A stretch of 64,000 bases of DNA from an uncultured Actinomycetes bacterium (GTDB taxonomy: Bacteria; Actinomycetota; UBA4738; HRBIN12), in the NCBI GenBank assembly GCA_963716935.1, contig CAVQUN010000005.1, positions 384,864 through 448,863 of the forward strand, read 5' to 3'. The notes under the pieces were generated by a model. That model worked only from the letters and a program-made list of their open reading frames with translations, ran no database searches and was not told the origin of the DNA. The position numbers were made by a program, and so were the translations under genes. The first letter of the stretch is position 1. Each line of letters opens with the position of its first letter. Below are positions 12,360 through 43,005 of the stretch, piece by piece.

Positions 12360-12434
12360 GCCGGCTCCTCGCCCGCACCTGTCGAACCCGTTCGTCGCCG
12401 TTCGTCGGTAGGGTGACGGAGGGTGGACGACGGT

Positions 12435-12452
12435 CGATCGGAGCTCCGATCG
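12435..12452. promoter_or_regulatory. Perfect 18-bp palindrome CGATCGGAGCTCCGATCG upstream of the yciI-like/sigma operon
   Basis: Perfect inverted repeat immediately 5' of the RBS GGGAGGAGG of the YciI-like gene. Preceded by a tandem direct repeat CCGTTCGTCG x2 (12389-12408). Confidence 0.3.
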
Positions 12453-12464
12453 GGAGGAGGCGGC

Positions 12465-12827
12465 ATGCGATACCTGCTGTTGATCTACGGGGACGAGAAG
12501 GAATGGGACGGCATGGGGCTCTCGCCCGAGGACCAGGCGGTCGAGATGAAGCGGTGGAACGACTACACCGACTGGCTCCAACAGAAGGGCTGGCACCTCG
12601 GGGGCGAGGCGCTCGAGCCGACGTCCTCGGCCACGACGGTGCGCGGGAGCGAGGGCACGACGCTCACCACGGACGGGCCCTTCGCCGAGACGAAGGAGCA
12701 GCTCGGCGGCTACTACCTGATCAATTGCGCGAACCTGGACGAGGCCATCGAGGCGGCGTCGCAGATCCCCAGCGTCGGGCGGGGGTCCATCGAGATCCGG
12801 CCGATCATGGAGTTCGGGCAGGAGTAG
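12465..12827 (+). CDS. YciI-like / DGPF-domain protein
   Basis: YCII-related fold with the DGPF motif (TTDGPFAETKEQLGGYYLI). ATG 12465 lies behind a strong RBS. Confidence 0.8.
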   Translation: MRYLLLIYGDEKEWDGMGLSPEDQAVEMKRWNDYTDWLQQKGWHLGGEALEPTSSATTVRGSEGTTLTTDGPFAETKEQLGGYYLINCANLDEAIEAASQIPSVGRGSIEIRPIMEFGQE

Positions 12828-12903
12828 CGGGATCGATCCGCGTGCGGTCGTCGACGACCTGTTTCGCACGGAGCACGGACGGGTCGTCGCCACCCTGATC
12901 CGC

Positions 12904-14064
12904 GTGCTCGGCGACTTCGACCTCGCCGAGGACGCGGTGCAGGAGGCGTTCGCCGAGGCGGTGCGGACCTGGCCCGAGCGCGGGGTCCCGCGCAACCCGG
13001 GAGCGTGGATCACGACGACCGCGCGGAATCGGGCGATCGACCGGCTCCGGCGCGAGCGGGTCCTGCGCGAGAAGACCGAAACGCTGACCCGGCTCGCCGA
13101 GCTCGAGTCCCTGGGCGGAGACGAGACCGACGTGAGTGGGATCCCCGACGACCGGCTGCGGCTGATCTTCACGTGCTGTCACCCGGCGCTGCCGATGGAC
13201 GCTCGCGTCGCGCTCACGCTGCGAACCCTCGGCGGCCTCACCACGGGGGAGATCGCCAGGGCGTTCCTGGTCGCCGAGGCCGCGATGGCACAGCGGCTGG
13301 TGCGGGCGAAGCGGAAGATCGTCGCCGCCGCGATCCCGTACCGGGTCCCCCCGCCCGAGCTGTTGCCCGAGCGACTGCCGGGCGTGCTCGCGGTGCTCTA
13401 CCTCGTCTTCAACGAGGGCTACGCGGCGACCTCGGGCCCGCTCGTGCGCACCGATCTGTGCAACGAAGCGATCCGGCTGACCCGGGTGCTGGTGGCCCTC
13501 ATGCCGAACGAGGCCGAGGCCGAGGGACTGATGGCGCTGATGCTCCTGCAGCACTCGCGCCGCGATGCGCGGGCCGACGAGCGGGGAGCCCTCGTGCTGC
13601 TCGAGGACCAGGACCGGGCGCGGTGGGACCACGACATGATCGACGAGGGGATCACCGCCCTCGACGCCGCCATGGCCGCTCGGCGGCCCGGCCCGTATCA
13701 GATCCAGGCGGCGATCGCCGCACTGCACGCGCAGGCACCGCGACCCGAGGACACGGACTGGCCGCAGATCGCGGCCCTGTACGGGCGGCTGGCCGAGCTC
13801 TCGCCCTCGCCCGTCGTGGAGCTGAACCGCGCGGTGGCGGTCGCGATGGCCGACGGGCCCGCGCGGGGCCTCTCGATGGTGAACGCCCTCGCGGGCGACC
13901 TCGACGGCTACCACCTGTTCCACTCGGCGCGGGCCGATCTCCTTCGCCGGCTCGAACGACGGGACGAGGCCGCCGAGTCCTACCGTCGAGCGCTGGCGCT
14001 CGCAACGAATCCGAGCGAGCGGGCGTACCTCGAGCTGCGGCTCGCGGAGGTCACGGCGACCTGA
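12904..14064 (+). CDS. ECF-type RNA polymerase sigma-70 factor with C-terminal extension (SigJ-like/DUF6596 type)
   Basis: Sigma regions 2 and 4 (DAVQEAF...WITTTARNRAIDRLRR) and a long C-terminal domain. First canonical start is GTG 12904, but conserved region 2.1 is encoded in-frame upstream from about 12829 (see findings). Confidence 0.75.
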   Translation: MLGDFDLAEDAVQEAFAEAVRTWPERGVPRNPGAWITTTARNRAIDRLRRERVLREKTETLTRLAELESLGGDETDVSGIPDDRLRLIFTCCHPALPMDARVALTLRTLGGLTTGEIARAFLVAEAAMAQRLVRAKRKIVAAAIPYRVPPPELLPERLPGVLAVLYLVFNEGYAATSGPLVRTDLCNEAIRLTRVLVALMPNEAEAEGLMALMLLQHSRRDARADERGALVLLEDQDRARWDHDMIDEGITALDAAMAARRPGPYQIQAAIAALHAQAPRPEDTDWPQIAALYGRLAELSPSPVVELNRAVAVAMADGPARGLSMVNALAGDLDGYHLFHSARADLLRRLERRDEAAESYRRALALATNPSERAYLELRLAEVTAT

Positions 14065-25410: not shown

Positions 25411-26220
25411 TCACCGCCCCGCCAGCTCGTCCTGGAGCGCCTCGTGGGCCTTGTCGGCCGCCCAGCGCTCGCGGATCACGCGGGCGAGCGCCCGCGTGAT
25501 GGCCTCGGGCGACGCGTGCATGAAGATGTTCCGGCCGACCGAGCACCCGATCGCCCCCGCCTCGACCGCGACCTGCATGCGCCACAGCAGCTCGGCGTCC
25601 TCCAGGCGCGACCCGCCGGCCAGCACCACCGGGATCCCGTTCGCCGCCTCGACGAGCCGCCCGAACGACTCCGGGTCCCCGGGCCAGTTCGTCTTCACGA
25701 TGTCGGCGCCGAGCTCGGCGCACAGGCGGACGTTGCGCCGCAGGTACTCGAAGCCGTACTGCTGCTTCAGCTCCTCGACCGTCGCGTAGGTGGTGGGGAA
25801 CTCGGCCTCGGCGATGAACGGCATGCCGAGCGCCCCGCACTCGCGCCCGACGGCCGCGAGGATGTCGATCATCCCGGGCTCGGTCTCGCCGCCGAGCGCG
25901 GTGAAGAGCACGACGGCGTCGGCGCCGAGCACGAGCGCCTCCTCCACCTCGGCGATCTGCACGATCTGCGGCCGGTCGCCGTCCGGGTTCCCCGACGCCG
26001 AGAGCAGGAGCGCGAGCGAGGTCGTCGGCGAGAAGGCCGGCTCCGCGATCCGGATCATGCCCTTGCTCATCATGATGACGTTCGCGCCGCCGGCCACGGT
26101 CTCCGCGGCGCGCATCGCGATGTCCGCGAGCGGCTCGAGGAACGTCGGCGAGGTCATGCCGTGGTCGAGGGCGCAGATGATCGACACGCCCGCGGGATCG
26201 ATCACGCGCTTCAGTCGCAT
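25411..26220 (-). CDS. DhnA-type class I aldolase (FbaB/LsrF/ADH-synthase family)
   Basis: 269-aa C-terminal segment of the track ORF with the DeoC/DhnA TIM-barrel pattern (IVKTNWPGD, VVLAGGS). ATG at 26220. Confidence 0.8.
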   Translation of the reverse strand: MRLKRVIDPAGVSIICALDHGMTSPTFLEPLADIAMRAAETVAGGANVIMMSKGMIRIAEPAFSPTTSLALLLSASGNPDGDRPQIVQIAEVEEALVLGADAVVLFTALGGETEPGMIDILAAVGRECGALGMPFIAEAEFPTTYATVEELKQQYGFEYLRRNVRLCAELGADIVKTNWPGDPESFGRLVEAANGIPVVLAGGSRLEDAELLWRMQVAVEAGAIGCSVGRNIFMHASPEAITRALARVIRERWAADKAHEALQDELAGR

Positions 26221-26240
26221 CGCCTTGCCCACCTGTGCCG

Positions 26241-26985
26241 TCACGTGTGCCTCCTCCCCGGACCCCGCCGGAACACCGAGAACTCGAACGCGTCCGCCAG
26301 GTGGTGCTCGTGCGAGGAGACGAGCGGAGCGCCCGACTCGTCGAAGTCCACCTGACGCAGATACAGGAGCAACGTCCCGCGGGCGACGCGGAGACGGGAT
26401 GCGACGTGTCCGTCCGCCCGCGTCGGCCGGAACGTCGCGAGCCCGTGATGGATCACCTGGCCGAGATCGCGCTCGAGCACCTCGTACACGGAGCTCGTCT
26501 CGAGCTTGGTGAGCAGCGCCGGGTCGTCGCCCGTGACGCGCATGGCCAGGATGTCGCGCGACAGGACGACGGGTCGCCCGTCGGCCGTGCGAACCCGGTC
26601 GACGACGACCACGTCCTCGCCCGGCTCGAGGTCCAGACGCTCGGCCTCCTCGGCGGAGGCGGCCTCGACGCGTAGGACCCCCTGCTCGGTTCCCGGTTCC
26701 ATGCCCGACGCGCGGATCGCGTCGGTCACGCCGAAGTTCGCGTCGAGGTTGTTCGCCATGCGCGGGCGGTCCGACACGAAGGTCCCCGCCCCGCGCGTCC
26801 GCCGGACGAGCCCCTCCTCCTCCAGGGACCGAAGCGCCTCGCGAAGCGTCGCCCTCGAGACGCCGAGCTCGGCCGCGAGCTCGGGCTCGGGGGGAGCTGG
26901 CTCCCCGCCGGCTCGTCGAGGATCCGCGTGGCGATGTGGCGCCGCACCGAGAGCGTCTTGGAACCCGACCGTCGCACCCGCACCC
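26241..26985 (-). pseudogene. GntR/HutC-family regulator (wHTH + UTRA) interrupted by a frameshift at a C6 homopolymer
   Basis: The HTH half (VRRSGSKTLSVRRHIATRILDEPAGSQLPP | EPELAAELGVSRATLREALRSLEEEGLVRRTRGAGTF) switches frame at the G6/C6 run 26888-26893. The UTRA effector domain continues in the other frame to the stop at 26241. One extra C would restore a single ORF. Confidence 0.6.
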
Positions 26986-27004
26986 CTCCCGAGCCATCAG
27001 TATT

Positions 27005-27017
27005 TGTCTGACAAAGC
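27005..27017. promoter_or_regulatory. Palindrome TTTGTCTGACAAA, candidate GntR/HutC operator
   Basis: Perfect 6-1-6 inverted repeat with the GT-N-AC core typical of HutC-subfamily operators. Lies in the divergent region between the GntR gene and the permease gene. Confidence 0.35.
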
Positions 27018-27081
27018 CCGGTCGTCAACACGGATCCCGAGCGTGGCAGGCACGGCGCGAGCCTCAGTGGGGACTTCTCCT

Positions 27082-27116
27082 GTTTGACATGCCCCGGCCG
27101 GCTATGGCTCGATACG
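27082..27116 (+). promoter_or_regulatory. Conserved promoter-like motif GTTTGACA-N21-GATACG (copy 1) upstream of the permease gene
   Basis: Contains a TTGACA -35-like hexamer. Identical architecture, with the downstream CGAACGA extension, recurs at 28830-28864. Confidence 0.4.
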
Positions 27117-27163
27117 GCCCGAACGACCGACGGACGGTCCGTGCAGCCAGGGGAGGTGGCCAC

Positions 27164-28765
27164 GTGTCGGAACGCAAGGTCGGGTCCGTGACCTACCAGG
27201 AGGTGGGCCAGGACTACTTCGACAAGCGCGGCCTTCGGCGCCACGCAGGTGTCTGGTCGCTGTGGGCCCTCGGCGTCGGGGCGGTCATCTCCGGCGAGTA
27301 CTACGGCTGGAACTTCGGCCTGGGAACCGGAGGATTCGGCGGCCTGCTGATCGCCGGTGCGCTGATGGCGATCATGTACTACGGCCTCGTCTACTCGATC
27401 GCCGAGATGTCCCCCGCGCTCCCGCACACGGGCGGTGCGTACTCGTTCGCGAGATCGGCCATGGGGCCGTGGGGCGGGTTCCTCACCGGCCTCGCGGAGA
27501 ACATGGAGTACGTGATCACGCCGGCGGTCGTCGTCGGCGCGATCGGGCTGCTCATGCAGGAGATCGTCGCGGGCCTGTTCAACGTCACCGGCGACCCGTG
27601 GTGGAACAGCCTCCCGATGTGGTGGGCGGTCTTCTACATCATCTTCGTCGGGATCAACATCCTCGGGATCGAGGCCACGATGCGATTCACGGTGGTCATC
27701 ACGGTCCTGTCCATCGCGGTCCTCGTGTTCTTCTTCCTTGCGGCGATCTTCTCGGGGAAGCTCGACTTCTCGCTGTGGACGAACATCCCCAAGGGCGGCG
27801 GCGAACCGATCCCCGGCGGAGGCGGACCGATGCTCCCGTTCGGGCTGAGCGGGATCTTCAAGTCCCTTCCCTTCGCGATCTGGTTCTTCCTCGCGATCGA
27901 GGAGGTGCCGCTCGCGGCGGAGGAGTCGATGGACCCGCGGCGCGACGTGCCCAAGGGATCCGTGTGGGCGATGCACACGCTGCTGATCGCGGCCATCCTC
28001 ACGCTGGTCTTCAACACGGCCCTGCCGGGAGGAGCGTTCCTCTACGGCCAGTCGGGGTTCCCGCTGCTGGATGGGCTGTTCGCGATCTTCGGCAAGGACA
28101 GCGCCACCGAGTTGCTCGGGCTCCTGTTCCTCATCGGCCTCGTGGCGAGCTTCTTCACGATCATCTACGCGTACGGCCGGAACACGTACTCACTGTCGCG
28201 CGCCGGCTACTTCCCGAAGTTCCTGTCGAAGACACACGGTCAGCGCAAGACACCCCATGTCGCCCTGATCGCCGGGGCGCTCGTCGGGTACGCGGTCTCG
28301 CTGCTCGTGTACATCCTGCAGCGTGAGGAGCTCGGCACGCAGATCGTCGCCGCGCTGCTGAACATGGCGGTATTCGCTGCGGTCATCTCGTACATCTTCC
28401 AGATGACGTCGTTCGTCCTGCTCCGCAGGAAGATGCCGAACATCGCGCGGCCCTACCGCAGCAAGTGGGGCGTTCCGGGTGCGGTCATCGCGGGACTGCT
28501 CGCGGCCGTGTCCCTCGTGGCGATCTTCCTGAACGAGGCCTACCGCCCCGGCGTGTATGGCGTGGCGATCTACTACGTCCTCGGGGTCCTGTACTTCGCG
28601 ATCGCCGGGAGGAACCGGCTCGTCCTCTCACCGGAAGAGGAGTTCGCGCTCACGCAGGGCGAGAAGGGCGTGCCGCAGGAGAGCTACGTGACGAGCGCGG
28701 CGGAGCAGGAGGCGATCCTGCGCGGCGAGAGTTCGAGCACCGGAACCCAGGCCCCGTCTGGGTAG
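27164..28765 (+). CDS. APC-superfamily amino acid/ethanolamine permease (EutP/Eat-like)
   Basis: 12-TM APC fold. HTGGAYSF-like motif (LPHTGGAYSFARSAMGPWGGF) typical of ethanolamine permeases. GTG 27164 behind RBS GGGAGG. Confidence 0.8.
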   Translation: MSERKVGSVTYQEVGQDYFDKRGLRRHAGVWSLWALGVGAVISGEYYGWNFGLGTGGFGGLLIAGALMAIMYYGLVYSIAEMSPALPHTGGAYSFARSAMGPWGGFLTGLAENMEYVITPAVVVGAIGLLMQEIVAGLFNVTGDPWWNSLPMWWAVFYIIFVGINILGIEATMRFTVVITVLSIAVLVFFFLAAIFSGKLDFSLWTNIPKGGGEPIPGGGGPMLPFGLSGIFKSLPFAIWFFLAIEEVPLAAEESMDPRRDVPKGSVWAMHTLLIAAILTLVFNTALPGGAFLYGQSGFPLLDGLFAIFGKDSATELLGLLFLIGLVASFFTIIYAYGRNTYSLSRAGYFPKFLSKTHGQRKTPHVALIAGALVGYAVSLLVYILQREELGTQIVAALLNMAVFAAVISYIFQMTSFVLLRRKMPNIARPYRSKWGVPGAVIAGLLAAVSLVAIFLNEAYRPGVYGVAIYYVLGVLYFAIAGRNRLVLSPEEEFALTQGEKGVPQESYVTSAAEQEAILRGESSSTGTQAPSG

Positions 28766-28791
28766 CGGGTCGCTCGATCCAACGCGCGGAC

Positions 28792-28824
28792 GGCGGGCCC
28801 CTCGGGGCCCGCCGTCTTCGTCTC
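28792..28824 (+). terminator. Putative intrinsic terminator after the permease gene
   Basis: GGCGGGCCC-CTCG-GGGCCCGCC hairpin followed by GTCTTCGTCTCC. The T-tract is weak for a high-GC genome. Confidence 0.4.
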
Positions 28825-28829
28825 CGCAC

Positions 28830-28864
28830 GTTTGACAGCCCGGACCGTCGGTGCACGTGATACG
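28830..28864 (+). promoter_or_regulatory. Conserved promoter-like motif GTTTGACA-N21-GATACG (copy 2) upstream of GS-like gene 1
   Basis: Same hexamers and same 21-nt spacing as copy 1. Followed by CGAACGAAC. Confidence 0.4.
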
Positions 28865-28890
28865 CGAACGAACTCACGAGGGGGAGCGAG

Positions 28891-30279
28891 ATGACGCACC
28901 CGCAGGGCATGCTCGACGCGAAGCACCTCGAGGAGCTCGCCGGCAAGGGCGAGATCGACACGGTTCTGTGCATGTTCACCGACCTGCAGGGCCGCTTCAT
29001 GGGCAAGCGCGTCGTCCCGCACTTCTTCCTCGAGGAGATCCTGGGCGAGGAGGGGCTGCACGCGTGCCTGTACCTGCTCGCCATCGACATGGAGATGGAG
29101 CCGCTGCCCGGATACCGCTACGCGAGCTGGGAGACCGGGTACGGCGACTTCCGCATGGTCCCGGACATGAGCACGCTTCGCTGGTGCCCCTGGCTCGAGA
29201 AGACCGTGATGGTGCTCTGCGACATCTTCGAGGAGGAGGAGAAGGACCAGGAGGTGGAGGTCGCGCCCCGGACGATCCTCAAGCACCAGATCGCGCGCGC
29301 GGCCGCGGCCGGCTACACGATCAAGACCGGCTCGGAGCTCGAGTTCTACCTGTTCCAGGATTCGTACCGCGAGGCCGCCGAGCGCGGCTATCGGGACCTG
29401 CGCCCCAGCTCCCCGTACATCATGGACTACCACATGCTCCAGACCACGCGGGACGAGTGGATCGTCCGGCAGATCCGCAACGCGATGCTGGGTGCGGGCA
29501 TCCCCGTCGAGTTCAGCAAGGGCGAGTTCGGCAAGGGCCAGCAGGAGATCAACATCACCTACTCGGACGCGCTCTCGAACGCCGACCACCACGCCCTGTA
29601 CAAGCACGGGGTCAAGGAGATCGCCGAGCTGAACGGCGTGGCGATCACCTTCATGGCGAAGTGGACGATGGCCGAGGCCGGCTCCAGCTGCCACCTGCAC
29701 TCGAGCGTGTGGAACGCCGAGGGGACCAAGAGCCTGATGTGGTCCGACGAGGGCGAGCACCACATGAGCGACACCTACCGCTGGTACCTCGGCGGCCTCA
29801 TGGCGTGCGCGCGCGAGATGGCCTGGATGTACGCGCCGTTCGTGAACTCCTACAAGCGCTACCAGCTGGGCTCGTGGGCGCCGACGGCGATCGTGTGGAG
29901 CCGGGACAACCGCACCTGCGGATTCCGCACCGTGGGCGAGCACACGGGCGCGCGGGTCGAGTGCCGGATCCCCGGCGCCGACGCGAACCCCTACCTGGCG
30001 TTCGCGGCGACGATCGCGGCCGGCCTGTGGGGGATCGAGAACAAGGTCGAGCCGCCCGAGATGTTCGTCGGCAACGCCTACGAGGCTAAGGACGTGGCCC
30101 GCGTCCCCTACTCGCTCCACGAGGCGATCGAGGCGTTCAAGGACTCGAAGGTGGCCCGGGAGGCGTTCGGGGACTTCGTCTTCGAGCACCTGCTGAACAC
30201 GGCGGTCCAGGAGCAGGTCATCTTCGACAACACGACCGTGACCGACTGGGAGCTCGCCCGGTACTTCGAGCGCGGCTGA
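28891..30279 (+). CDS. Glutamine synthetase-family protein 1 (gamma-glutamyl-amine synthetase, GlnA4/PuuA-like)
   Basis: GS catalytic-domain motifs (GSELEFYLF, KGEFGKGQQEIN, SWAPT...WSRDNRT, ADANPYLAFAA). Lacks the GlnA type I adenylylation loop. Confidence 0.88.
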   Translation: MTHPQGMLDAKHLEELAGKGEIDTVLCMFTDLQGRFMGKRVVPHFFLEEILGEEGLHACLYLLAIDMEMEPLPGYRYASWETGYGDFRMVPDMSTLRWCPWLEKTVMVLCDIFEEEEKDQEVEVAPRTILKHQIARAAAAGYTIKTGSELEFYLFQDSYREAAERGYRDLRPSSPYIMDYHMLQTTRDEWIVRQIRNAMLGAGIPVEFSKGEFGKGQQEINITYSDALSNADHHALYKHGVKEIAELNGVAITFMAKWTMAEAGSSCHLHSSVWNAEGTKSLMWSDEGEHHMSDTYRWYLGGLMACAREMAWMYAPFVNSYKRYQLGSWAPTAIVWSRDNRTCGFRTVGEHTGARVECRIPGADANPYLAFAATIAAGLWGIENKVEPPEMFVGNAYEAKDVARVPYSLHEAIEAFKDSKVAREAFGDFVFEHLLNTAVQEQVIFDNTTVTDWELARYFERG

Positions 30280-30304
30280 CCATAGGCCTCGAGAGACTCG
30301 TGAG

Positions 30305-31036
30305 ATGCGGCCCGTCCTGCTGATCGGGCACGATCAGAACGAGACCTTCGGGTTGGCCCCGGCCGGCCTCGGGGCTCGAGGGCTGGAGGTCTTTGAGCAC
30401 CGTGCCCCGTCGGGCGGCACGCTCCCTTCGATCGACGCGGTCTCCGGAGTGATCGTCTTCGGGGGATCGATGAACGTGGACATGGTCGACCGTTACCCCT
30501 TCCTCCTGGAGGAGCGAGGCTTCGTGCGCCGGGCCGTCGACGCGGGCGTTCCCCTTCTGGGGATCTGCCTCGGATCGCAGATGCTCGCGAGGGCGATGGG
30601 TCATGAGGTGTATGCGGCCGACGTGCGGGAGTTGGCGTTCAACGTCCTCCACGTGACGCCCGAGGCGGCCGCCGACCCGCTCATGTCCGTGTTCCGCGAC
30701 GGCGACATGGTCTTCCACTGGCACGAGGACACCTTCGAGCTCCCGGAGGGCGCGACGATCCTCGGCACCGGGGACGAAGTCCATCTCCAGGCGTTTCGGA
30801 TCGGCGACCACGCCTGGGGCATGCAGTTCCATTTCGAGATCGACCGGGCCGAGCTGGAGCTCTGGCTCCGGGCGGCTGGCGAGGACGTCGTGCAAGCGTG
30901 GGGGAAGACCACTGCCCAGGTCCTGGATGAGGCCGATCGTTTCTTGGCGACCCAGGAGGCGCGCGCCACCCGGCTCTTCGGCAGGTTCGCAGACGTGGTC
31001 CTGGCGGCGGGGAGAAATCGATCGGCCACCGGCTAG
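30305..31036 (+). CDS. Class I glutamine amidotransferase-like protein 1 (gamma-glutamyl-amide hydrolase candidate)
   Basis: GATase1 fold with nucleophile-elbow GICLGSQ and His/Glu in WHEDTFELP. Confidence 0.8.
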   Translation: MRPVLLIGHDQNETFGLAPAGLGARGLEVFEHRAPSGGTLPSIDAVSGVIVFGGSMNVDMVDRYPFLLEERGFVRRAVDAGVPLLGICLGSQMLARAMGHEVYAADVRELAFNVLHVTPEAAADPLMSVFRDGDMVFHWHEDTFELPEGATILGTGDEVHLQAFRIGDHAWGMQFHFEIDRAELELWLRAAGEDVVQAWGKTTAQVLDEADRFLATQEARATRLFGRFADVVLAAGRNRSATG

Positions 31037-31134
31037 ACAGCGACCGCACTCCGGTGCAAGGATTCGCGACGACGTGACCTGGTGGGGGTTCCCGCCTCGG
31101 CTCGCGGGGTCCCCCCGACAAGGGAGGGGGTCGC

Positions 31135-32721
31135 ATGGCTGCGCAGGCCGATGAGAAGGTGATGGTCGCCGAGAAGATCGCGCCGCTCCTGGTCGCGCGG
31201 TCCCTCACGGCCTTCGACCTGATCGTCATCTTCGTCGGGATCGTCCTGTTCATCACGAACTCCGCGGGCTTGCAGTTCGCTGGCCCGTCCGTGTTCGTCT
31301 TCTGGATCATCGCGTTCCTGACGTTCCTCCTCACCGGCGCCTTCATCACGGCGCATCTCGGGAGGATGTTCCCGGAGGAGGGGTCGCTGTACGTCTGGAC
31401 CCACAAGGTCCTCGGCCCGTTCTGGGGGTTCTTCGCCGGGTTCGTGGCCTGGTGGCCGGGACCGCTGGTGATGGTCGCGGCCGGCATCCTCGTCGTTGCC
31501 TTCGCCCAGCAGGTCGCCGCCTTCAGCGACAGCACGATCCTGACGGAGGCCTGGCAGCAGGGCCTGGTCATCCTGGCGGTCCTCTGGTTCGGAGCGATCC
31601 TGTCGCTGCTCCGGATGCGCCTCACCCAGAACTACGTGAACCTCCAGTTCTTCTTCTACGGCGCGGCGATCTTCGTGATGGGGCTCGCCGGCGTGGTCTG
31701 GCTGCTGAAGGGCAACCCGGCGGCGAACTCGTTCGCCACCGATCTGTGGAACCCGTGGCAGGGCGACAAGATCGTGCTCGGGCTGCCCGGGTACCTGACC
31801 TTCTACTCCTTCGCCGTCCTCGCCCTGCTCGGGATCGAGGTCCCGCTGAACATGGGCGTCGAGGTCGTAGGCGGCGAGGCCGCGATCAAGAAGTACCTGT
31901 TCTGGGGTTGCATCATCGTGATGGCCGCCTATCTCTGGACGACGTGGGGCAACATGGTGACCGTCTCCGTCGCCGAGGTGAACGGCACGACCGGAGGCGC
32001 GCAGGGGGTGGGCATCGCGATGGGTGACGCGCTCGGGATCGCCGTGGCGCTCGTCCTGATGTGGTTCTTCATCACGGCCTCGATGGTCTACAACTACTCG
32101 TTCGCCCGGCTGCTCTTCGTTTCCGGACTGGAGAAGCGGCTGCCCCCGATGATTGGTCGCGTCAACAAGAACAAGGTGCCGGCGAACGCCGTCCTGCTGC
32201 AGACGATCCTGGCGTCGATCATCACAGCCATCATCTTCTTCGGCATCGGGCAGGCCGGTGGCGGCGACCCGAACAAGCCATACTTTGCGCTCCTCGCAGG
32301 GCTCACCATCATCTGGTGCATCTCGACGGCTCTGCTGTTCCTCGACATCTTCTTCGCAAAGCGGGCCGATCCGGAGCGATTCGAGAAGGCGCGGAGGACG
32401 AACGAGGGGTTCCTCTACGCCTGCGGCGCGGTCGGCTTCCTGGCGAACCTCGCCGCGGTGTTCTTCATCTTCACCGGCACGTGGTATCCGCCGGGATTCC
32501 CGACCCTGGGAGAATGGAACACGTGGCTGGCAGTCATCGCGGTCGTTTCGATCGTCGCCGGGATCACGATCTGGTTCATCTCCGAGGGGATGCGCGGGGG
32601 CAAGTCGGATGTCCAGCTGATCGACGAGATCGCGGCTGAGGTCGGCGCCACGGTCGTAAACCTGAACGAGCCGACGACCGCTGGCACCTCGCCGGGCGGG
32701 GTTGGCGGTTCGCCCGCTTAG
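31135..32721 (+). CDS. APC-family amino acid/polyamine permease
   Basis: 12-13 predicted TM helices with APC-family composition. RBS GGGAGGGGG upstream of the ATG. Confidence 0.82.
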   Translation: MAAQADEKVMVAEKIAPLLVARSLTAFDLIVIFVGIVLFITNSAGLQFAGPSVFVFWIIAFLTFLLTGAFITAHLGRMFPEEGSLYVWTHKVLGPFWGFFAGFVAWWPGPLVMVAAGILVVAFAQQVAAFSDSTILTEAWQQGLVILAVLWFGAILSLLRMRLTQNYVNLQFFFYGAAIFVMGLAGVVWLLKGNPAANSFATDLWNPWQGDKIVLGLPGYLTFYSFAVLALLGIEVPLNMGVEVVGGEAAIKKYLFWGCIIVMAAYLWTTWGNMVTVSVAEVNGTTGGAQGVGIAMGDALGIAVALVLMWFFITASMVYNYSFARLLFVSGLEKRLPPMIGRVNKNKVPANAVLLQTILASIITAIIFFGIGQAGGGDPNKPYFALLAGLTIIWCISTALLFLDIFFAKRADPERFEKARRTNEGFLYACGAVGFLANLAAVFFIFTGTWYPPGFPTLGEWNTWLAVIAVVSIVAGITIWFISEGMRGGKSDVQLIDEIAAEVGATVVNLNEPTTAGTSPGGVGGSPA

Positions 32722-32783
32722 CAGACGATCCGCAGCAGCTGAGGGCCGCTCACGACTCGTGAGCGGCCCTCAACGCTCACCGG

Positions 32784-33959
32784 TCACTCGCCGCCGATGC
32801 CGTGCAACCGGCGGCAGCTTCCCGCCAGCACCAGCCTGCCCAGCCGCTTCGCGTCCGAGGCGGAGAGGTAGTCGCGCTTCACGAACCGGGTGAGGACGCG
32901 CTCGAGCGCCGATCGGGCGAGCAGGGCCGAGGCCCAGAACGCCTCGGGCTCGCCCGCCTCGTCCGAGCCGTAGAGGAGCTTCGCTGCGGGGACGGTTCCC
33001 ACGAGCATCTCGAGCGCCCACTCGACCTGTCCCCATCCCCACGGGATGAGCTCGGAGAGCTCGAGGTAGACGTTGGGGAGCACGGACGCGATGTACGCGG
33101 CCTCGCGAACCCACGGGTAGCCGGAGTGGACGAGGACGACCGGCTGATCCTGGACGTCGACGAGGAGCGGGAACAGCGACTGCGGCGTGGCGTGCGCGAG
33201 GTCGATGTCCGGGTCGCCACCGCCGCAGTGGAAGTGGAAGGGCCGATCGGTCGCCTTGGCGACCTCGAGCGTGCGCCTGATGAGGAAGTCGCGGACCGGC
33301 TTGGCGTGCTCGCGGCTCTCGCGCCAGTCGTCGGCGCGCCACTTGCCGAACGCCGCCTCCGCATCCGCCGGCGTCGGATCGCCGACGTCCAGACCGGTGC
33401 GGTACGCGACGATCGACTTGAACGCGACGCAGTTCGCGTCGCCGGCGGCCTCGCGGGCGTCGGCCTCGACGCCAGAGACCAGGTCGTCGAACGAGCCGTC
33501 GCGGCGTCGAAGGATCCACGGCTCCAGCCGCGCCACGCGGTGGACCGTCGCGCCGATCGTCCGCGCGAACTCGGCGGCCGGGATCGGGGGCTGCGGGAAG
33601 CCCTCGTCGGAGAGGACCGCGACGACGCCGGCGGCCTCGAGCAGCCCCTTCGTATAGGCGACGGCGTCGGCCTGCAGCGCCGCCTGGCGGGCAGCGGTCA
33701 CCGCCTCCCGGGTCGGTTCGCACCCGAGATGCCCGGCCAGCCACCGTCGCAGCGCGATCGCGAACACCGTCGAGTCCGTCATCGAGTCGGCGAGCGGCCA
33801 GAGATCCTCGTGCACGCGCGACGACGAGTGGAACGCCTCGCCCAGGAACATCGCGCGGGTGTCGAACCCCTCGGAAGGGCGTCCGACGAGGTCCTCGAGC
33901 CGGTACGGATGGGTGTGGGCGTCGACGACCTCCGCGCCCGAGAGCTTCACCTTCTTCAT
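32784..33959 (-). CDS. Amidohydrolase-2 (PF04909-like) metal-dependent TIM-barrel hydrolase
   Basis: HTHPY metal-binding start, HFHCGGG and HSGYPW motifs. Located inside a 988-aa spurious opposite-frame ORF. Confidence 0.78.
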   Translation of the reverse strand: MKKVKLSGAEVVDAHTHPYRLEDLVGRPSEGFDTRAMFLGEAFHSSSRVHEDLWPLADSMTDSTVFAIALRRWLAGHLGCEPTREAVTAARQAALQADAVAYTKGLLEAAGVVAVLSDEGFPQPPIPAAEFARTIGATVHRVARLEPWILRRRDGSFDDLVSGVEADAREAAGDANCVAFKSIVAYRTGLDVGDPTPADAEAAFGKWRADDWRESREHAKPVRDFLIRRTLEVAKATDRPFHFHCGGGDPDIDLAHATPQSLFPLLVDVQDQPVVLVHSGYPWVREAAYIASVLPNVYLELSELIPWGWGQVEWALEMLVGTVPAAKLLYGSDEAGEPEAFWASALLARSALERVLTRFVKRDYLSASDAKRLGRLVLAGSCRRLHGIGGE

Positions 33960-38318: not shown

Positions 38319-39037
38319 GCCCAACTCCCGCCGGCGCCGCCCCGTTGCGCGCGCTCGTCCTGCAGCACGAGGACCCCACGCCCCCCGGGCTCGTCACCGA
38401 ATGGCTCGCGTCCCACGAGGCCCTCGTCGAGACCTTCCGCATCGACCTGGAGGATCGCGAGCTCGATCCGACCGACTACGACCTCATCGTGTCGCTCGGT
38501 TCCGAGTTCGCCGCGTTCGACGACACGAAGCCGTTCGTGGGGCGCGAGGCCCGGCTCCTGCGTCGAGCCGTCGACGCCGACGTCCCCGTCCTCGGCCTCT
38601 GCTTCGGCGGCCAGATGCTCGCGCGGGTGCTCGGCGCCGACGTGTTCCGCTCCGAGGAGTCCGAGATCGGGTGGCTCCCCGTCCGCAGCACCGATCCCGA
38701 GCTCGTCCCCGAGGGCCCGTGGTTCCAGTGGCACTTCGACTCGTTCACCGCGCCGCCCGGGGCGAGCGTGATCGCCGAGTCCGACGTGGGCCCGCAGGCC
38801 TTCGTCGCGGGTCGCAGCCTCGGGCTGCAGTTCCACCCCGAGGTGACCCCGCAGATCATGGACGACTGGGTGCGCACGTACCGGCATGAGCTCGACGCCG
38901 ACGGGGTCGATCCCGACGCGCTGCTGGAGGAGACGCATCGGCGCGCCGACGAGAGCCGCCGGACGTCGTGGCAGCTCCTCGAGCGGTTCCACGACCGGAT
39001 CGCCGGCCTCGGCGCGCGGGAAGCGACGACGGCGTAG
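38314..39037 (+). CDS. Class I glutamine amidotransferase-like protein 2
   Basis: GTG 38314 in a GTGA overlap with the aminotransferase stop. GATase1 motifs GLCFGGQ and HFDSF...FHPE. The upstream 223 aa of the track ORF are artefact. Confidence 0.8.
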
Positions 39038-39051
39038 GCGGCGGAGGAACC

Positions 39052-40414
39052 GTGCAGGCGACGATCCGATCCGAGCAGACGAGCGTGTTCCCCCGCTTCG
39101 CCGACCTCGCCTACCCGAACGTCGAGCGCGGCGACGGCGTCTGGCTCACGACGACCGACGGACGCCGGATCCTCGACGCCTGCTCCGGCGGCGCGATGGT
39201 GACGTGCCTCGGGTACGGGGTCCCCGAGGTGGTGGCGGCCGCGGCCGAGCAGGCCGAACGCATCGCGTACTTCTACAACCACCACTTCACGAGCGAGCCG
39301 CAGGAGCGATTCGCCGAGCGCCTGCTTGCGATCGCCGCCCCGGAGATGGCGCGAGCGCGATTCGTCTCGGGCGGCTCGGAGGCCAACGAGACCGCGCTGC
39401 AGCTGGCGCGCCTGTACCACGTCGAGCGGGGCGAGCCCGAGCGCTGGCGCGTGATCTCGCCGGCGCAGTCCTACCACGGCTCCACGATGGGGACGCTCGC
39501 GCTGAACGGGAGGCCCGCCCTGCAGGAGCCGTTCACTCCCTACCTCGCCGACCACCTGCACCTGCCGCCGTCGACGTCGCGCTTCGACCCGACCGGCGAG
39601 GCCGCGTTGCAGGAGCTGGATCGCCTCCTCGAACGGGCGGGCCCGGGGACGATCGCCGCCTTCCTCGCCGAGCCCGTGAGCGCGGCGGCGCTGCCCGGGT
39701 ACGCGCCGCCGGAGCGGTTCTGGCGAGGCCTCGCCGAGCGTCGCGAGCGGCACGGGTTCCTCGTCTGCCTCGACGAGGTGGTGACCGGCATGGGCCGCGT
39801 CGGGAGCTGGCTCGCGGCGCACCAGCTGCCGATCGAGCCCGACATCGTCGCGGTCGGCAAGGCGCTCGGCGCCGGGTACGCGCCGCTCGGCGCGGTGCTG
39901 TGCCGCCGGCACGTGTACGACGCCCTCGACCGGGGCTCGCGCGAGTTCGACCTCGGCCATACGTGGGACGGCGCCCCGCTGTCCACCGCGGTCGGGCTCG
40001 CGGTGCTCGACCAGCTCGAAAGCCGGGGCCTGGTCGACCGCGTGCGCGATCGCGGGCCGGCCCTGCGGCAGGAGCTCGCGTCGGCGCTCGCGGGCTTCGG
40101 CGTCGTCGGCGAGGTTCGCGGCCGCGGCTTCCTCCTCGGCGTCGAGCTCGTCGACCCGCGCGACGCGCACGTCGTTCCTGCCGGTCGAGCTCGACGCCGC
40201 GACGATCGTCGACGACCTCGCGCTCGAACACGGCCTCCTCGTCACGTCGACGCATCCCCAGGCGGACGGCTACGCGGGCGACCAGACGCTCCTCGCCCCC
40301 GCCTACACGAGCACCGACGCCGAGCTCGCCGAGATGGTCGAGCGGTTCGCCGCGACGATCGGCGAGGTCGAGCGCGTTCTCGGGCGGACGCTCTCCGGCA
40401 CGAACGCGCCATGA
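39052..40414 (+). pseudogene. Class III aminotransferase 2, apparently +1 frameshifted near 40165
   Basis: Paralogue of aminotransferase 1. Homology runs in frame 1 to ...GVELVDPRDA, then continues in frame 2 (SFLPVELDAATIVDDLALEHGLLVTSTHPQADGYAGDQTLLAPAYT...) to TGA 40412-40414. Frame 1 instead reads an Arg-rich tract into the next gene. Confidence 0.6.
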
Positions 40415-41700
40415 GCGAGCCCCTCGGCGAGTTCATCCTCCTCGGCATGCCCGACGTGAACGGCTCGCTCCGCGGCAAGGCGCTGCGACCCGAGGCGTTC
40501 GAGTCGGCGCTCCGGCACGGGACGGTGATGACGGACCTCCTGCTCGGCCTCGACCCGGTCGACACGCCGATCGCCGACTACGAGCGGTTCGGGATCCGAA
40601 CCGGCGCCGCGGACCTCGTCGTGCACCCGGATCCGGAGACGCTGCACCCGTTGCGATGGCGGCCCGGGTGGCGGGTCTGCCTCGCCACGCCGACCTGGCC
40701 CGACGGCTCGCCCTGCGAGCTCGCCTCGCGAGAGGTGCTACGCCACGTCCTCGACGGCGTCGCCGAGCTGGGGTTCGAGGTGCTCGCCGCGTTCGAGTAC
40801 GAGATCCGGATCTGGGACGCGAACGGCGATCCCCTGTCGAGCGGCATCAGCTACAGCCTCACGGAGATCGACCGCTACGCCGCGTTCGCGTCCGAGCTCG
40901 CCCCGGCGCTTCGAGAGCTCGGGATCGAGCTCTCGGCGGTCCACACCGAGGCCGGGCCGGGACTCCTCGAGCTGAACCTCACGCCCGGGCGCGGCCTTCG
41001 CGCCGCCGACGACGCCGCGTTGGTCAAGTTCGCCGCCAAGCAGCTCGCCGCGTCGATGGGGCTGCGCGCGAGCTTCCTCGCCAAGACGGTTCCGGGAGAG
41101 GAGGGATCGAGCGGCCATCTCCACGTCTCGCTGTGGAACGGCGACGCGAACGCCTTCGCCGCGTCGGACCTCACCCATCCTCTGCCGCCTGCCTTCGACG
41201 CCGCGGTGGCCGGCGTCCTCGACCACCTCCCGGCCGCGTCTTTGCTGCTGAACCCGACGATCAACTCGTACAAGCGGCTCGTCCCGGGATGGTTCGCGCC
41301 GATCAACGCAACCTGGGGGTTCGAGAACCGCTCGTGCGCCGTCCGCGTCATCCGGTCGACCCGGCCCGAGCTGTGGCGGTTCGAGTGCCGGCGCCCCGGC
41401 GCCGACGCCAACCCGTATCTCGCGCTCGCGGCGCTCGTCGCCTCGGTCGCCGACGGCCTCCGGCGCGGGGCGACGCCGCCGGCGCCCGTCGAGGGCGACG
41501 CCTACGCGCGCGACGACCTCCCGGAGCTGCCCGGCTCCCTCGAGGCGGCGCTCGGGGCCTTCGAGGCCGACGCGGTCCTGCGACGCGAGCTCGGCGAGCG
41601 GTTCGCCGAGTACTACGCCACGTCCCGGGCCTGGGAGCTCAAGGCGTGGCGCGAGACGGTCACCGACTGGGAGCGCGAGCGCTACGACCGCGCGGTGTAG
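40411..41700 (+). CDS. Glutamine synthetase-family protein 4
   Basis: ATG 40411 overlaps the frame-2 stop of the upstream aminotransferase (ATGA). GS catalytic motifs (AAFEYEIRIW, GHLHVSLWN, ADANPYLALAA). Confidence 0.85.
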   Translation: MSEPLGEFILLGMPDVNGSLRGKALRPEAFESALRHGTVMTDLLLGLDPVDTPIADYERFGIRTGAADLVVHPDPETLHPLRWRPGWRVCLATPTWPDGSPCELASREVLRHVLDGVAELGFEVLAAFEYEIRIWDANGDPLSSGISYSLTEIDRYAAFASELAPALRELGIELSAVHTEAGPGLLELNLTPGRGLRAADDAALVKFAAKQLAASMGLRASFLAKTVPGEEGSSGHLHVSLWNGDANAFAASDLTHPLPPAFDAAVAGVLDHLPAASLLLNPTINSYKRLVPGWFAPINATWGFENRSCAVRVIRSTRPELWRFECRRPGADANPYLALAALVASVADGLRRGATPPAPVEGDAYARDDLPELPGSLEAALGAFEADAVLRRELGERFAEYYATSRAWELKAWRETVTDWERERYDRAV

Positions 41701-41706
41701 GACCCG

Positions 41707-43005
41707 ATGACCCCGTACCGGCCGCTCGTCGCCGTCGTCGCCTACCACCTCGCCGACGATCGGGTGCCCCGATGGCCGCATGGCGGCTACGGCGTCCCCG
41801 GTCCCTACCTCGACTGCCTCCGGCGGGCCGGCGCCCGCACCGCCATCCTGTCCCCCGGGGAAACGGGATCGCCGCAGGAGCTCCTCGATCCCTTCGACGC
41901 GCTCCTGCTCGTCGGGGGCGGCGACGTCGATCCCGAGCGGTACGCGCAGGCGCCGGGCGAGCACGTGTACGGCGTCGAGGAAGACCGCGACGCGTTCGAG
42001 ATCGACCTCCTGCGAGCCGCCGACGCGATAGGCGTGCCCACCCTGTGTATCTGCCGCGGCATGCAGGTCATGAACGTCGCGTTCGGTGGCACGCTCCTGC
42101 AGCATCTCCCGGTGGTACCGGGCCTCCTCGAGCACGGCGTGCCGGTCCAGGACATCCAGTCGCTGCACGACGTGCGGACGGACCCCGGGAGCCGCCTGCG
42201 GGCGACGGCCGGCGTCGAGACGCTGACGTGCTCGTCGCACCACCATCAGGGCGTCGATCGCGTCGGGGAGGGGTTGCGGGCCACGGGGTGGAGCGAGGAC
42301 GGGCTCGTCGAGGCGATCGAGCGCGAGCCGGGGGGCGGGGCGGACGATCGCCCGTTCGAGGCCGGATGGATGGTGGGCGTGCAGTGGCATCCGGAGGACA
42401 CGGCCGACGGCGACGCCGCACAGCAATCGCTGTTCGACGCGCTCGCGGTCCTCGGCCACGTTCGCGGCACGCGCGCCCGGCCCGGCCTTCGCGCCGGACG
42501 GAGCCGCGCCTACGAGCTGGTCGAGCCCGATCCGGCGTGGGCGGCGATGTTCGAAGAGGAGGCGGATCGGATCCGGGCCGCGCTCGGGCCGGTGGCCGTT
42601 CGCGTGGACCACGTCGGCTCGACGGCGGTTCCCGGGCTCGCGGCCAAGCCGACCATCGACATCCAGGTGTCGGTCGACGCGATGGTGCCGCGCGCCCGCT
42701 TCGTCGAGCCGCTCATCGCCCTTGGGTACGAGTTCGTCGTCGACCCCACCGACACCGAGCACCAGTACCTCCGGCGGGAGATCGACGGCGTGCGCAAGCA
42801 CCAGATTCACGTCTGCGCGGCGGGCGGCGAGTGGGAGGCTCGGCACCTGCGGTTTCGAGACCACCTTCGAGCCCATCCCGAGGACGCCGCCGCATACGAG
42901 GAGCTGAAACGGCGGCTCGTGCGCGAGCACCCGAACGACGTCATGACGTACGTCGACGGCAAGACGCCGTTCATCCGCCGGATCGAGGCGCTCGCCGACC
43001 CGTAG
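41707..43005 (+). CDS. Fusion protein: peptidase C26/class I GATase (PuuD-like gamma-glutamyl hydrolase) + GrpB-family domain
   Basis: N-terminal half has the C26 triad context (LCICRGMQ nucleophile, HHQG, WHPE). C-terminal half has GrpB motifs (VDHVGSTAVPGLAAKPTIDIQV, HQIHVC, FRDHLRAHPE). Confidence 0.8.
   Translation: MTPYRPLVAVVAYHLADDRVPRWPHGGYGVPGPYLDCLRRAGARTAILSPGETGSPQELLDPFDALLLVGGGDVDPERYAQAPGEHVYGVEEDRDAFEIDLLRAADAIGVPTLCICRGMQVMNVAFGGTLLQHLPVVPGLLEHGVPVQDIQSLHDVRTDPGSRLRATAGVETLTCSSHHHQGVDRVGEGLRATGWSEDGLVEAIEREPGGGADDRPFEAGWMVGVQWHPEDTADGDAAQQSLFDALAVLGHVRGTRARPGLRAGRSRAYELVEPDPAWAAMFEEEADRIRAALGPVAVRVDHVGSTAVPGLAAKPTIDIQVSVDAMVPRARFVEPLIALGYEFVVDPTDTEHQYLRREIDGVRKHQIHVCAAGGEWEARHLRFRDHLRAHPEDAAAYEELKRRLVREHPNDVMTYVDGKTPFIRRIEALADP

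Follow-up and report, generated by a model that had tools for sequence, protein, structure and literature searches.

What reads a promoter-like element that joins a perfect −35 box to no recognizable −10 box? The question is raised by a 64,000-nucleotide (nt) stretch of DNA from an uncultured Actinomycetes bacterium (GTDB lineage Actinomycetota; UBA4738; HRBIN12), namely positions 384,864 to 448,863 of contig CAVQUN010000005.1 in assembly GCA_963716935.1, hereafter called the window, whose G+C content is 71%. The same motif, GTTTGACA-N21-GATACG followed by CGAACGA, stands here upstream of a gene for an APC-family permease (copy 1) and again upstream of a glutamine-synthetase-like (GS-like) gene (copy 2), close to a divergently encoded GntR-type regulator. 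An earlier note, made from the letters alone, had taken the pair for a shared regulator site or an alternative-sigma recognition site co-regulating both units, and its TTTGACA for the half-site of a palindrome next to the GntR gene. In our assessment, both motifs are probably copies of one lineage-conserved, non-canonical core promoter, which would ancestrally have been under repression by the GntR/HutC regulator.

The motif pair is real, as had been described, with both hexamers, the 21-nt spacing and the CGAACGA block. Exact copies of GTTTGACA-N21-GATACG occur on the forward strand only at 27082-27116 and 28830-28864 of the 64 kb; with the distance relaxed to N15-27 these two remain the only matches, against none in 100 dinucleotide-preserving shuffles, and GTTTGACA itself has no other exact site in the window. 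GATACG-N0-6-CGAACGA is likewise confined to 27111-27126 and 28859-28871 (0.01 expected). The distance to the start codon downstream is 82 nt for copy 1 (permease GTG) and 61 nt for copy 2 (GS-like ATG), and their 21-nt spacers are unrelated in sequence; the two upstream regions were aligned by anchoring on the boxes, as MAFFT misaligned them. A relaxed scan of the window, allowing one mismatch in the −35 box, returned no further copy except an intragenic site (ATCGACA-N21-GGATACC, 29084-29115), which lies inside the GS-like coding region and is most likely due to chance. The upstream regions of the other amine genes of the window (permease 2, GS-like 2 and an aminotransferase) are without the module.

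Evidence from related loci lends this pair its weight. Relatives of the GS-like protein number in the thousands at 78-92% identity, mostly in metagenome-assembled genomes (MAGs) labelled Actinomycetota, and our comparison set comprised 80 metagenome loci around such relatives, some tests using a GC-rich clade set of 858 kb. Thirty-four non-identical loci contain the N-terminus of the permease ortholog together with 160 nt of upstream DNA, and every one of them carries TTGAC[AG] followed by (G/C/A)AT(A/T), at N20 in 14 and at N21 in 20, with no other spacing within 14-26 in these upstream regions. Across the 858 kb, TTGACR-Nx-VATAC matches 78 times at N20/21 and at most 4 times at any other spacing from 12 to 29. 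The matches at N20/21 stand mainly before the permease ortholog (61), with 3 before the GS-like gene (the GATAGC variants fall outside this pattern) and 8 before a different APC permease, of TIGR00907 type, that also heads a GS-like operon and is non-homologous to the permease of the window (BLASTP E=0.13); the last 6 comprise 2 cut by contig ends and 4 in unrelated loci from a genome scan. Boxes and spacing are kept even where the proteins are only 60-90% identical, whereas the flanking intergenic sequence is not; nor is the module spacer, apart from a T(G/A)TG(G/T)CT block that immediately precedes the ATA island in some clades. Close relatives differ by 1 nt in spacer length, which is as expected for a promoter spacer of 17/18 nt. 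With its strong constraint, fixed geometry and 1-nt slack, the module behaves like a promoter, and by the criterion of conservation the motif pair is non-random and functional. That part of the earlier proposal which saw a shared cis-element therefore stands: the element occupies promoter positions, and its boxes and spacing are under strong purifying selection in dozens of related loci.

In the mechanism we propose, RNA polymerase would contact the consensus −35 TTGACA and an A/T island centred on ATA, 20-21 nt downstream, the AT of which would fall at −8/−7 of a −10 hexamer given a normal 17/18-nt spacer. Since TANNNT is missing, the promoter is predicted to be weak or factor-assisted and to rely on its perfect −35 box. 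Copy 1 would start the transcript of the ethanolamine-type permease; beyond the terminator hairpin at the end of that gene, copy 2 would start transcription anew, now of the GS-like and amidotransferase genes. Through an ancestral operator, TTTGACAGACAAA, overlapping the −35 box, the divergent repressor would have been able to shut the promoter off; in the lineage of the window only its left half survives, and the sole intact candidate operator, at 27003-27015, lies within the repressor's own predicted promoter. Where the modules lie, how far they are conserved, their fixed geometry and the layout of the operators are observed, whereas promoter activity, the choice of −10 bases and repression by GntR are inferred.

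The −35 side of this proposal is straightforward. TTGACA is exact in both copies, as in sigma-70/sigma-A promoters, and the module is non-coding, oriented toward its gene and kept at orthologous positions, where a promoter would be looked for. The −10 side is not, as neither copy has TANNNT or TATAAT 16-19 nt after the −35 box. The earlier remark on non-canonical spacing holds, since in neither copy does a TANNNT occur between TTGACA and the start codon, and a promoter scan reports nothing at either site. What is invariant is an A and a T, usually followed by A and C, and the ATA island is the sole A/T-rich patch before the start codon. Three registers can be laid over it. Register 1 (yTnsAT; CTCGAT in copy 1, CGTGAT in copy 2) gives a spacer of 17/18 nt and a T at −7; register 2 (xATACs) places an A at −11; register 3 (TAsssn), with a spacer of 22/23 nt, violates both the spacer length and the T at −7. 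They are not told apart by three single-T insertions (GATTAG, GATTAC, CATTAC). We favour register 1, on its geometry and on the 1-nt spacer tolerance seen in close relatives.

Several observations weigh against the core-promoter interpretation. TANNNT at N14-25 is found in only 2 of 47 unique modules. Position −11 of register 1 is T, C or G and never A; register 2, which supplies that A, does so at the price of a 20/21-nt spacer and a G or C at −7, and a spacer of 20-21 nt lies outside the normal working range of sigma-70-family holoenzymes. The neighbouring GntR promoters are canonical in 23 of 25 cases (TTGACR-N17/18-TANNNT, with TTTGTCNGACAAA in the spacer), so the deviation is specific to the module and could signal another recognition factor. 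As the compared sequences are related by descent, all such counts overstate the number of independent observations. In sequence, the module forms a class of its own beside the canonical promoters found in the same lineage and the same intergenic regions.

The other factor might be an alternative sigma or a dedicated activator that reads the 20/21-nt distance and the xATAC box and serves a small regulon of GS-like amine utilization, an explanation that we consider unlikely, if serious enough to be weighed in full. Its broader version, in which TTGACR-N20/21-(G/C/A)ATAC is a distinct promoter class read by an uncharacterised sigma or polymerase-associated activator of uncultured soil Actinomycetota, dedicated to uptake and catabolism units of the gamma-glutamylation type and installed independently before unrelated permeases and the GS-like gene, seems to us doubtful. 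The contrast with the canonical promoters next door speaks for such a factor, as do boxes and a distance that are invariant while the spacer drifts. Because the module is kept before two unrelated permeases and a GS-like gene, it tracks the function of the operon rather than the ancestry of one gene, and the strongest case for a dedicated reader comes from its being retained before a non-homologous permease. Against this, neither a sigma nor an activator gene was seen to be conserved among the genes recognized in the GntR-permease-GS unit; the sole sigma gene of the window is of the extracytoplasmic function (ECF) type, lies 13 kb away and forms a pair with a YCII gene. Nor is GAT invariant, the base before ATA being G, C or A, and a regulon is hard to discern in a window whose only further match is intragenic and whose other amine genes lack the module. 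ECF promoters typically combine an AAC-containing −35 box with a CGT, GTT or GAT −10 box at about 16-18 nt, a distance that the module exceeds by about 3 nt, and its 20/21 nt fits neither the sigma-28 nor the SigB/F-type geometry. In favour of such a factor, an actinobacterial ECF sigma with a GAT −10 element and an xTxAC(A/G) −35 element does exist: SigD of Corynebacterium glutamicum recognizes GTAAC(A/G) / GAT (PMC6338062). TTGAC(A/G) and (G/C/A)AT partly resemble these boxes, but at a distance of 20-21 nt. Sigma-32-like, Firmicute sigma-E/K (CATACA), sigma-28, SigB/F-type, MerR-type and ECF SigD sites were considered, and none fits both boxes and the spacing. The GlnR box gTnAc-n6-GaAAc has no site with up to 2/9 mismatches on either strand of 26990-27170 and 28766-28895.

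A scan of public genomes with the permease-type pattern TTGACA-N12/13-TRTGKCT-N-VATAC matched at least 119 stretches. Among the matches listed, about 30 are from GC-rich Actinomycetota with usable flanks, all before a permease ortholog, and 87 lie in other phyla, 55 of these inside open reading frames (ORFs); as the pattern is of the permease type and many matches are internal to ORFs, the scan says little about a regulon. Eleven of the scanned loci, mostly Methylophilaceae / Methylotenera MAGs, share a recurrent intergenic sequence, TTGACA-N12/13-TATGGCT(A/T)AATAC(G/C)..GTTTCA.A.A.ATTAAAAA, which resembles a strong promoter, conserved in this unrelated phylum, whose −10 is of the extended kind (TGG-CTTAAT/CTAAAT at N17/18). 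As to the ECF gene of the window, its pairing with the YCII gene resembles the ECF42 type (an ECF factor with a C-terminal extension, together with YCII). TGTCGAAC, at 12380-12387, stands just upstream of the YCII/ECF pair and is unrelated to the motif pair.

If the module is indeed a core promoter, the adjacent regulator would be its ancestral repressor. The UTRA domain of this regulator places it, by sequence, in the HutC subfamily, whose members bind palindromes as dimers. Its N-terminal helix-turn-helix lies in another frame than the rest of the protein: compared with four intact orthologs, a 1-nt deletion in the G6/C6 homopolymer at 26889-26894 splits the helix-turn-helix from UTRA, whereas orthologs give single full-length tblastn matches. 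The frameshift may reflect a genuine loss of the gene's function by mutation or a misread homopolymer. A perfect 13-bp palindrome, TTTGTCTGACAAA, is the candidate operator. Every perfect copy in the 80 metagenome loci adjoins a GntR ortholog, and in the GC-rich set 38 distinct sequence contexts contain a perfect TTTGTCNGACAAA palindrome. At 25 distinct loci the palindrome lies between the TTGACR and the TANNNT of the promoter facing the GntR gene, with a spacer of 17/18 nt in 23 of them; the arrangement of promoter and palindrome in the window is conserved in the orthologs.

About 20 loci have a second, one-mismatch operator, TTTGACAGACAAA, which begins 1 nt ahead of the permease −35 TTGACA and extends over it, and in another clade a perfect copy of the palindrome abuts the permease −35 box. 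The window and its nearest relatives (L004, L018, L062 and L064) have only the left half (GTTTGACAtg), the perfect palindrome lying 81 nt upstream, and it is from this left half of TTTGACAGACAAA that copy 1 has its GTTT prefix. With half of the operator lost and the regulator frameshifted, the repressor gate would have decayed in this genome, unless the frameshift is a sequencing error. The earlier identification of TTTGACA as the palindrome half-site is thus not literally correct, the half-site being TTTGTC/GACAAA and TTTGAC one base off TTTGTC; it had the evolutionary tie right, as most orthologs hold the full variant over the −35 box, and the tie is functionally weak in the window.

A more direct role of the regulator, in which the two GTTTGACA boxes are themselves operators of the adjacent GntR/HutC protein and the pair is co-regulated by direct repressor binding, appears improbable. 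It draws on the near-perfect operator over the permease −35 box in most related lineages, and on the half-site-like T(G/A)TG(G/T)CT next to the ATA island, which co-occurs with the operator and reads TATGGCT in copy 1. In the window, however, TTTGAC stands alone at both copies with no right half, and a scan for the 13-mer palindrome with up to 3 mismatches gave no second match. Copy 2 and all GS-type copies have neither the right half nor the TGTG block; in group D, TTGACR and ATAC persist in promoters that have no operator; and the regulator gene of the window carries a frameshift. Given the dimer binding to palindromes expected of HutC-type regulators, a one-mismatch half-site alone does not make a credible dimer operator of either motif. 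Of the two readers suggested in the earlier note, then, neither an alternative sigma, for which no co-conserved gene was seen in the unit, nor direct GntR binding, for which the window offers a half-site only, has direct support.

That the two sites are alike by chance, or as a neutral leftover of a local duplication, as their number of two and their unrelated spacers might suggest, is so improbable in view of the empty shuffles and of boxes and spacing that outlast their flanks at 60-90% protein identity that it can be set aside.

Four loci (L060, L071, L078 and L143) carry two operators 33 nt apart in the GntR-permease intergenic region: TTTGTCAGACAT(A/G) lies in the GntR promoter, and a perfect TTTGTCTGACAAA ends 5 nt before the permease −35 box. 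The GntR promoter of this clade, TTGACA-N22-AATACG, lacks a TANNNT at N17/18, which shows that long-spaced TTGACA/xATAC pairs occur outside the permease promoter too. In six loci where the TIGR00907-type permease replaces the ethanolamine-type one, there is no GntR operator, and a GGACTAGTC / GCTAGTCC-like palindromic patch, possibly the target of another regulator, precedes TTGACR by about 30-45 nt; in 2 of these loci it overlaps the stop codon of an upstream dehydrogenase gene. In a further group of loci (L020, L025, L031, L033, L044, L063 and similar) the GntR and permease genes are separated by a small gene, which lies some 250-340 nt upstream of the permease −35 box and is missing from the lineage of the window. 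Its translation is hydrophobic, which suggests a membrane protein, and it appears to be leaderless, with a TANNNT (TACCCT, TAGGGT, TAGGCT or TATCGT) 6-8 nt before the start and no ribosome-binding site.

Two further blocks accompany the core boxes of the putative promoter. CGAACGA is found in the permease leader of L062, as CGAACGG in that of L064 and as CCAACGA in those of L004 and L018, and a variant, CGAACCGA, occurs in GS leaders of the L009 type; in more distant promoters it is missing. Its place, 4-16 nt past the ATA island, is where transcription is predicted to begin. Because it is kept only in the nearest relatives and lies beyond the island, it looks like a clade-specific start-site or leader sequence and not like a third recognition box. 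The T(G/A)TG(G/T)CT block resembles the half-site TTTGTC. Block and GntR operator are both present in 18 promoters and both absent in 32, with 5 discordant, an association that is inflated by shared ancestry. The block may be an auxiliary repressor contact or an extended −10 in the Gram-positive style. The extended −10 (TRTG) interpretation fits the clades that carry GntR, but GS-type and group-D promoters lack the block; its co-variation with the operator indicates that it may be an auxiliary half-site instead.

Copy 2 raises the additional question of why a promoter should stand inside the unit. Directly after the permease stop codon there is a GC-rich, terminator-like hairpin; the RNA fold of 28766-28840 has −43.9 kcal/mol (z = −3.6), and 0 of 200 shuffles were as stable. 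An equivalent hairpin follows the permease in nearly all orthologous loci. Copy 2 starts 14 nt past it. The form (G)TTTGACAG-N20/21-GATAGC or GATACG, after the hairpin and about 30 nt before the GS start, is kept in 14 non-identical sequences, namely the window and 13 subclade loci, and a few further relatives have a weakened −35 box at the GS-like gene, such as TCGACG. In all other clades the module is absent upstream of the GS-like gene, where only the hairpin and a ribosome-binding site are found, which implies read-through from the permease promoter there. The subclade of the window therefore seems to have gained an internal promoter of the permease-module type, and the GS-like copy would be the derived one. 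The features discussed here are collected in Table 1.

Table 1. Positions in the window of the two promoter modules, their parts and the neighbouring features
Feature	Position	Strand	Remarks
Copy 1, putative permease promoter module	27082..27126	+	Motif and shuffle counts; module in all 34 non-identical orthologous permease upstream regions
Copy 1, GTTTGACA	27082-27089	+	
Copy 1, −35 TTGACA	27084-27089	+	
Copy 1, TATGGCT	27103-27109	+	
Copy 1, geometric −10 window CTCGAT	27108-27113	+	
Copy 1, GATACG	27111-27116	+	
Copy 1, CGAACGA	27120-27126	+	
Copy 2, putative internal promoter module of the GS-like gene	28830..28871	+	Motif and shuffle counts; kept in subclade
Copy 2, GTTTGACA	28830-28837	+	
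Copy 2, −35 TTGACA	28832-28837	+	
Copy 2, geometric −10 window CGTGAT	28856-28861	+	
Copy 2, GATACG	28859-28864	+	
Copy 2, CGAACGA	28865-28871	+	
Predicted GntR promoter TTGACG-N18-AATACT	26999..27028	-	Overlaps palindrome; sole sigma-70-type site reported in 26000-33000
Perfect 13-bp palindrome TTTGTCTGACAAA, candidate operator	27003..27015	.	Single match in window; in spacer and −10 region of GntR promoter
GntR/HutC-type regulator (winged-helix and UTRA effector domain)	26241..26975	-	UTRA E=2.8e-28; frame broken
APC-family permease	27164..28765	+	Pfam AA_permease_2; best family match ethanolamine permease
GC-rich terminator-like hairpin with T-containing tail	28789..28823	+	Hairpin about 28789-28816; directly after permease stop codon
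Glutamine-synthetase-like gene 1	28891..30279	+	Gln-synt_C E=3e-93
Class-I amidotransferase gene	30305-31036		After GS-like 1
ECF sigma gene (Sigma70_r2, r4_2 and DUF6596 C-terminal extension)	12721-14064		Directly after YCII-domain gene 12417-12827

The gene content around the modules is that of amine uptake and catabolism. The permease scores 366 bits against the NCBIfam ethanolamine permease model TIGR00908, slightly below the cut-off of 381.75, and GS-like 1 scores under the cut-offs of every true-GS model in NCBIfam and is a probable gamma-glutamyl-amine synthetase. Nearby are genes for an aldehyde dehydrogenase, a short-chain dehydrogenase, a second permease, a second GS-like protein and aminotransferases. 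A 910-amino-acid ORF at 38968-41700 has a class-III aminotransferase domain ahead of a glutamine-synthetase catalytic domain and is an apparent fusion, or else two genes merged by a frame error; next to it, a 432-amino-acid ORF (41707-43005) joins a peptidase C26 domain (gamma-glutamyl hydrolase-like) to GrpB, again an apparent fusion. A structured RNA, such as a riboswitch or structured leader, was ruled out: Rfam covariance models gave no match at E<=1 in 26500-31500, and the permease leader has no stable fold, being less stable than the shuffle mean (z = +1.3).

Taken as a non-canonical core promoter with an ancestral operator, the locus provides a testable regulatory map for a widespread group of uncultured soil Actinomycetota, consisting of the putative operator TTTGTCNGACAAA, the transporter promoter and a secondary GS-like promoter. 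It would also exemplify regulatory turnover, with an operator lost from over the −35 box, a frameshifted repressor and an internal promoter gained behind a terminator. A strongly conserved element with a perfect −35 box and no recognizable −10 box is a test case for promoter-prediction tools, as well as for how actinobacterial RNA polymerase handles non-consensus −10 regions. It is a useful annotation and not a new type of system.

Among known systems, the closest to the module are the sigma-A/sigma-70 promoters of actinobacteria (TTGACN-N16-19-TANNNT), with which it shares a perfect −35 box 60-80 nt before the start codon, an invariant AT at −8/−7 given the 17/18-nt spacer, and tolerance of one base of variation. 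It differs from them in having no TANNNT, no A at −11 in the canonical register, and a contiguous (G/C/A)ATAC as its conserved block. If xATACs were the −10 element, a spacer of 20-21 nt behind a consensus −35 box would recall the long-spacer promoters (19-20 bp) of MerR-type regulators, but no dyad is conserved in the module spacer across the promoter family, 21 nt exceeds the known MerR range, and none of the approximately 47 ORFs of the window scanned against Pfam has a MerR domain. The regulator side is akin to GntR/HutC systems such as DasR/NagR, in which a divergent regulator acts on palindromic GT-N-AC operators. Here, too, a UTRA domain is present in a regulator whose gene runs divergently, its own promoter contains a perfect palindrome built around a GTC..GAC core, and a second operator covers the transporter −35 box in most related lineages. 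The differences are that the putative operator, as read from the sequence, is an odd-length 13-bp palindrome (TTTGTC-N-GACAAA), and that the window combines a frameshifted regulator gene with a transporter-side operator of which only one half is left. In gene content alone, the locus resembles the glnA4 cluster of Streptomyces coelicolor, whose ethanolamine genes are under substrate-specific control by the divergent repressor EpuRI and not by GlnR; neither the protein family nor the binding site of EpuRI is stated there (PMC6529630). A gamma-glutamylating GS-like enzyme, a putative ethanolamine permease, a glutamine amidotransferase, an aldehyde dehydrogenase, a short-chain dehydrogenase and a divergently encoded repressor make up the set that the two loci have in common (PMC6529630).

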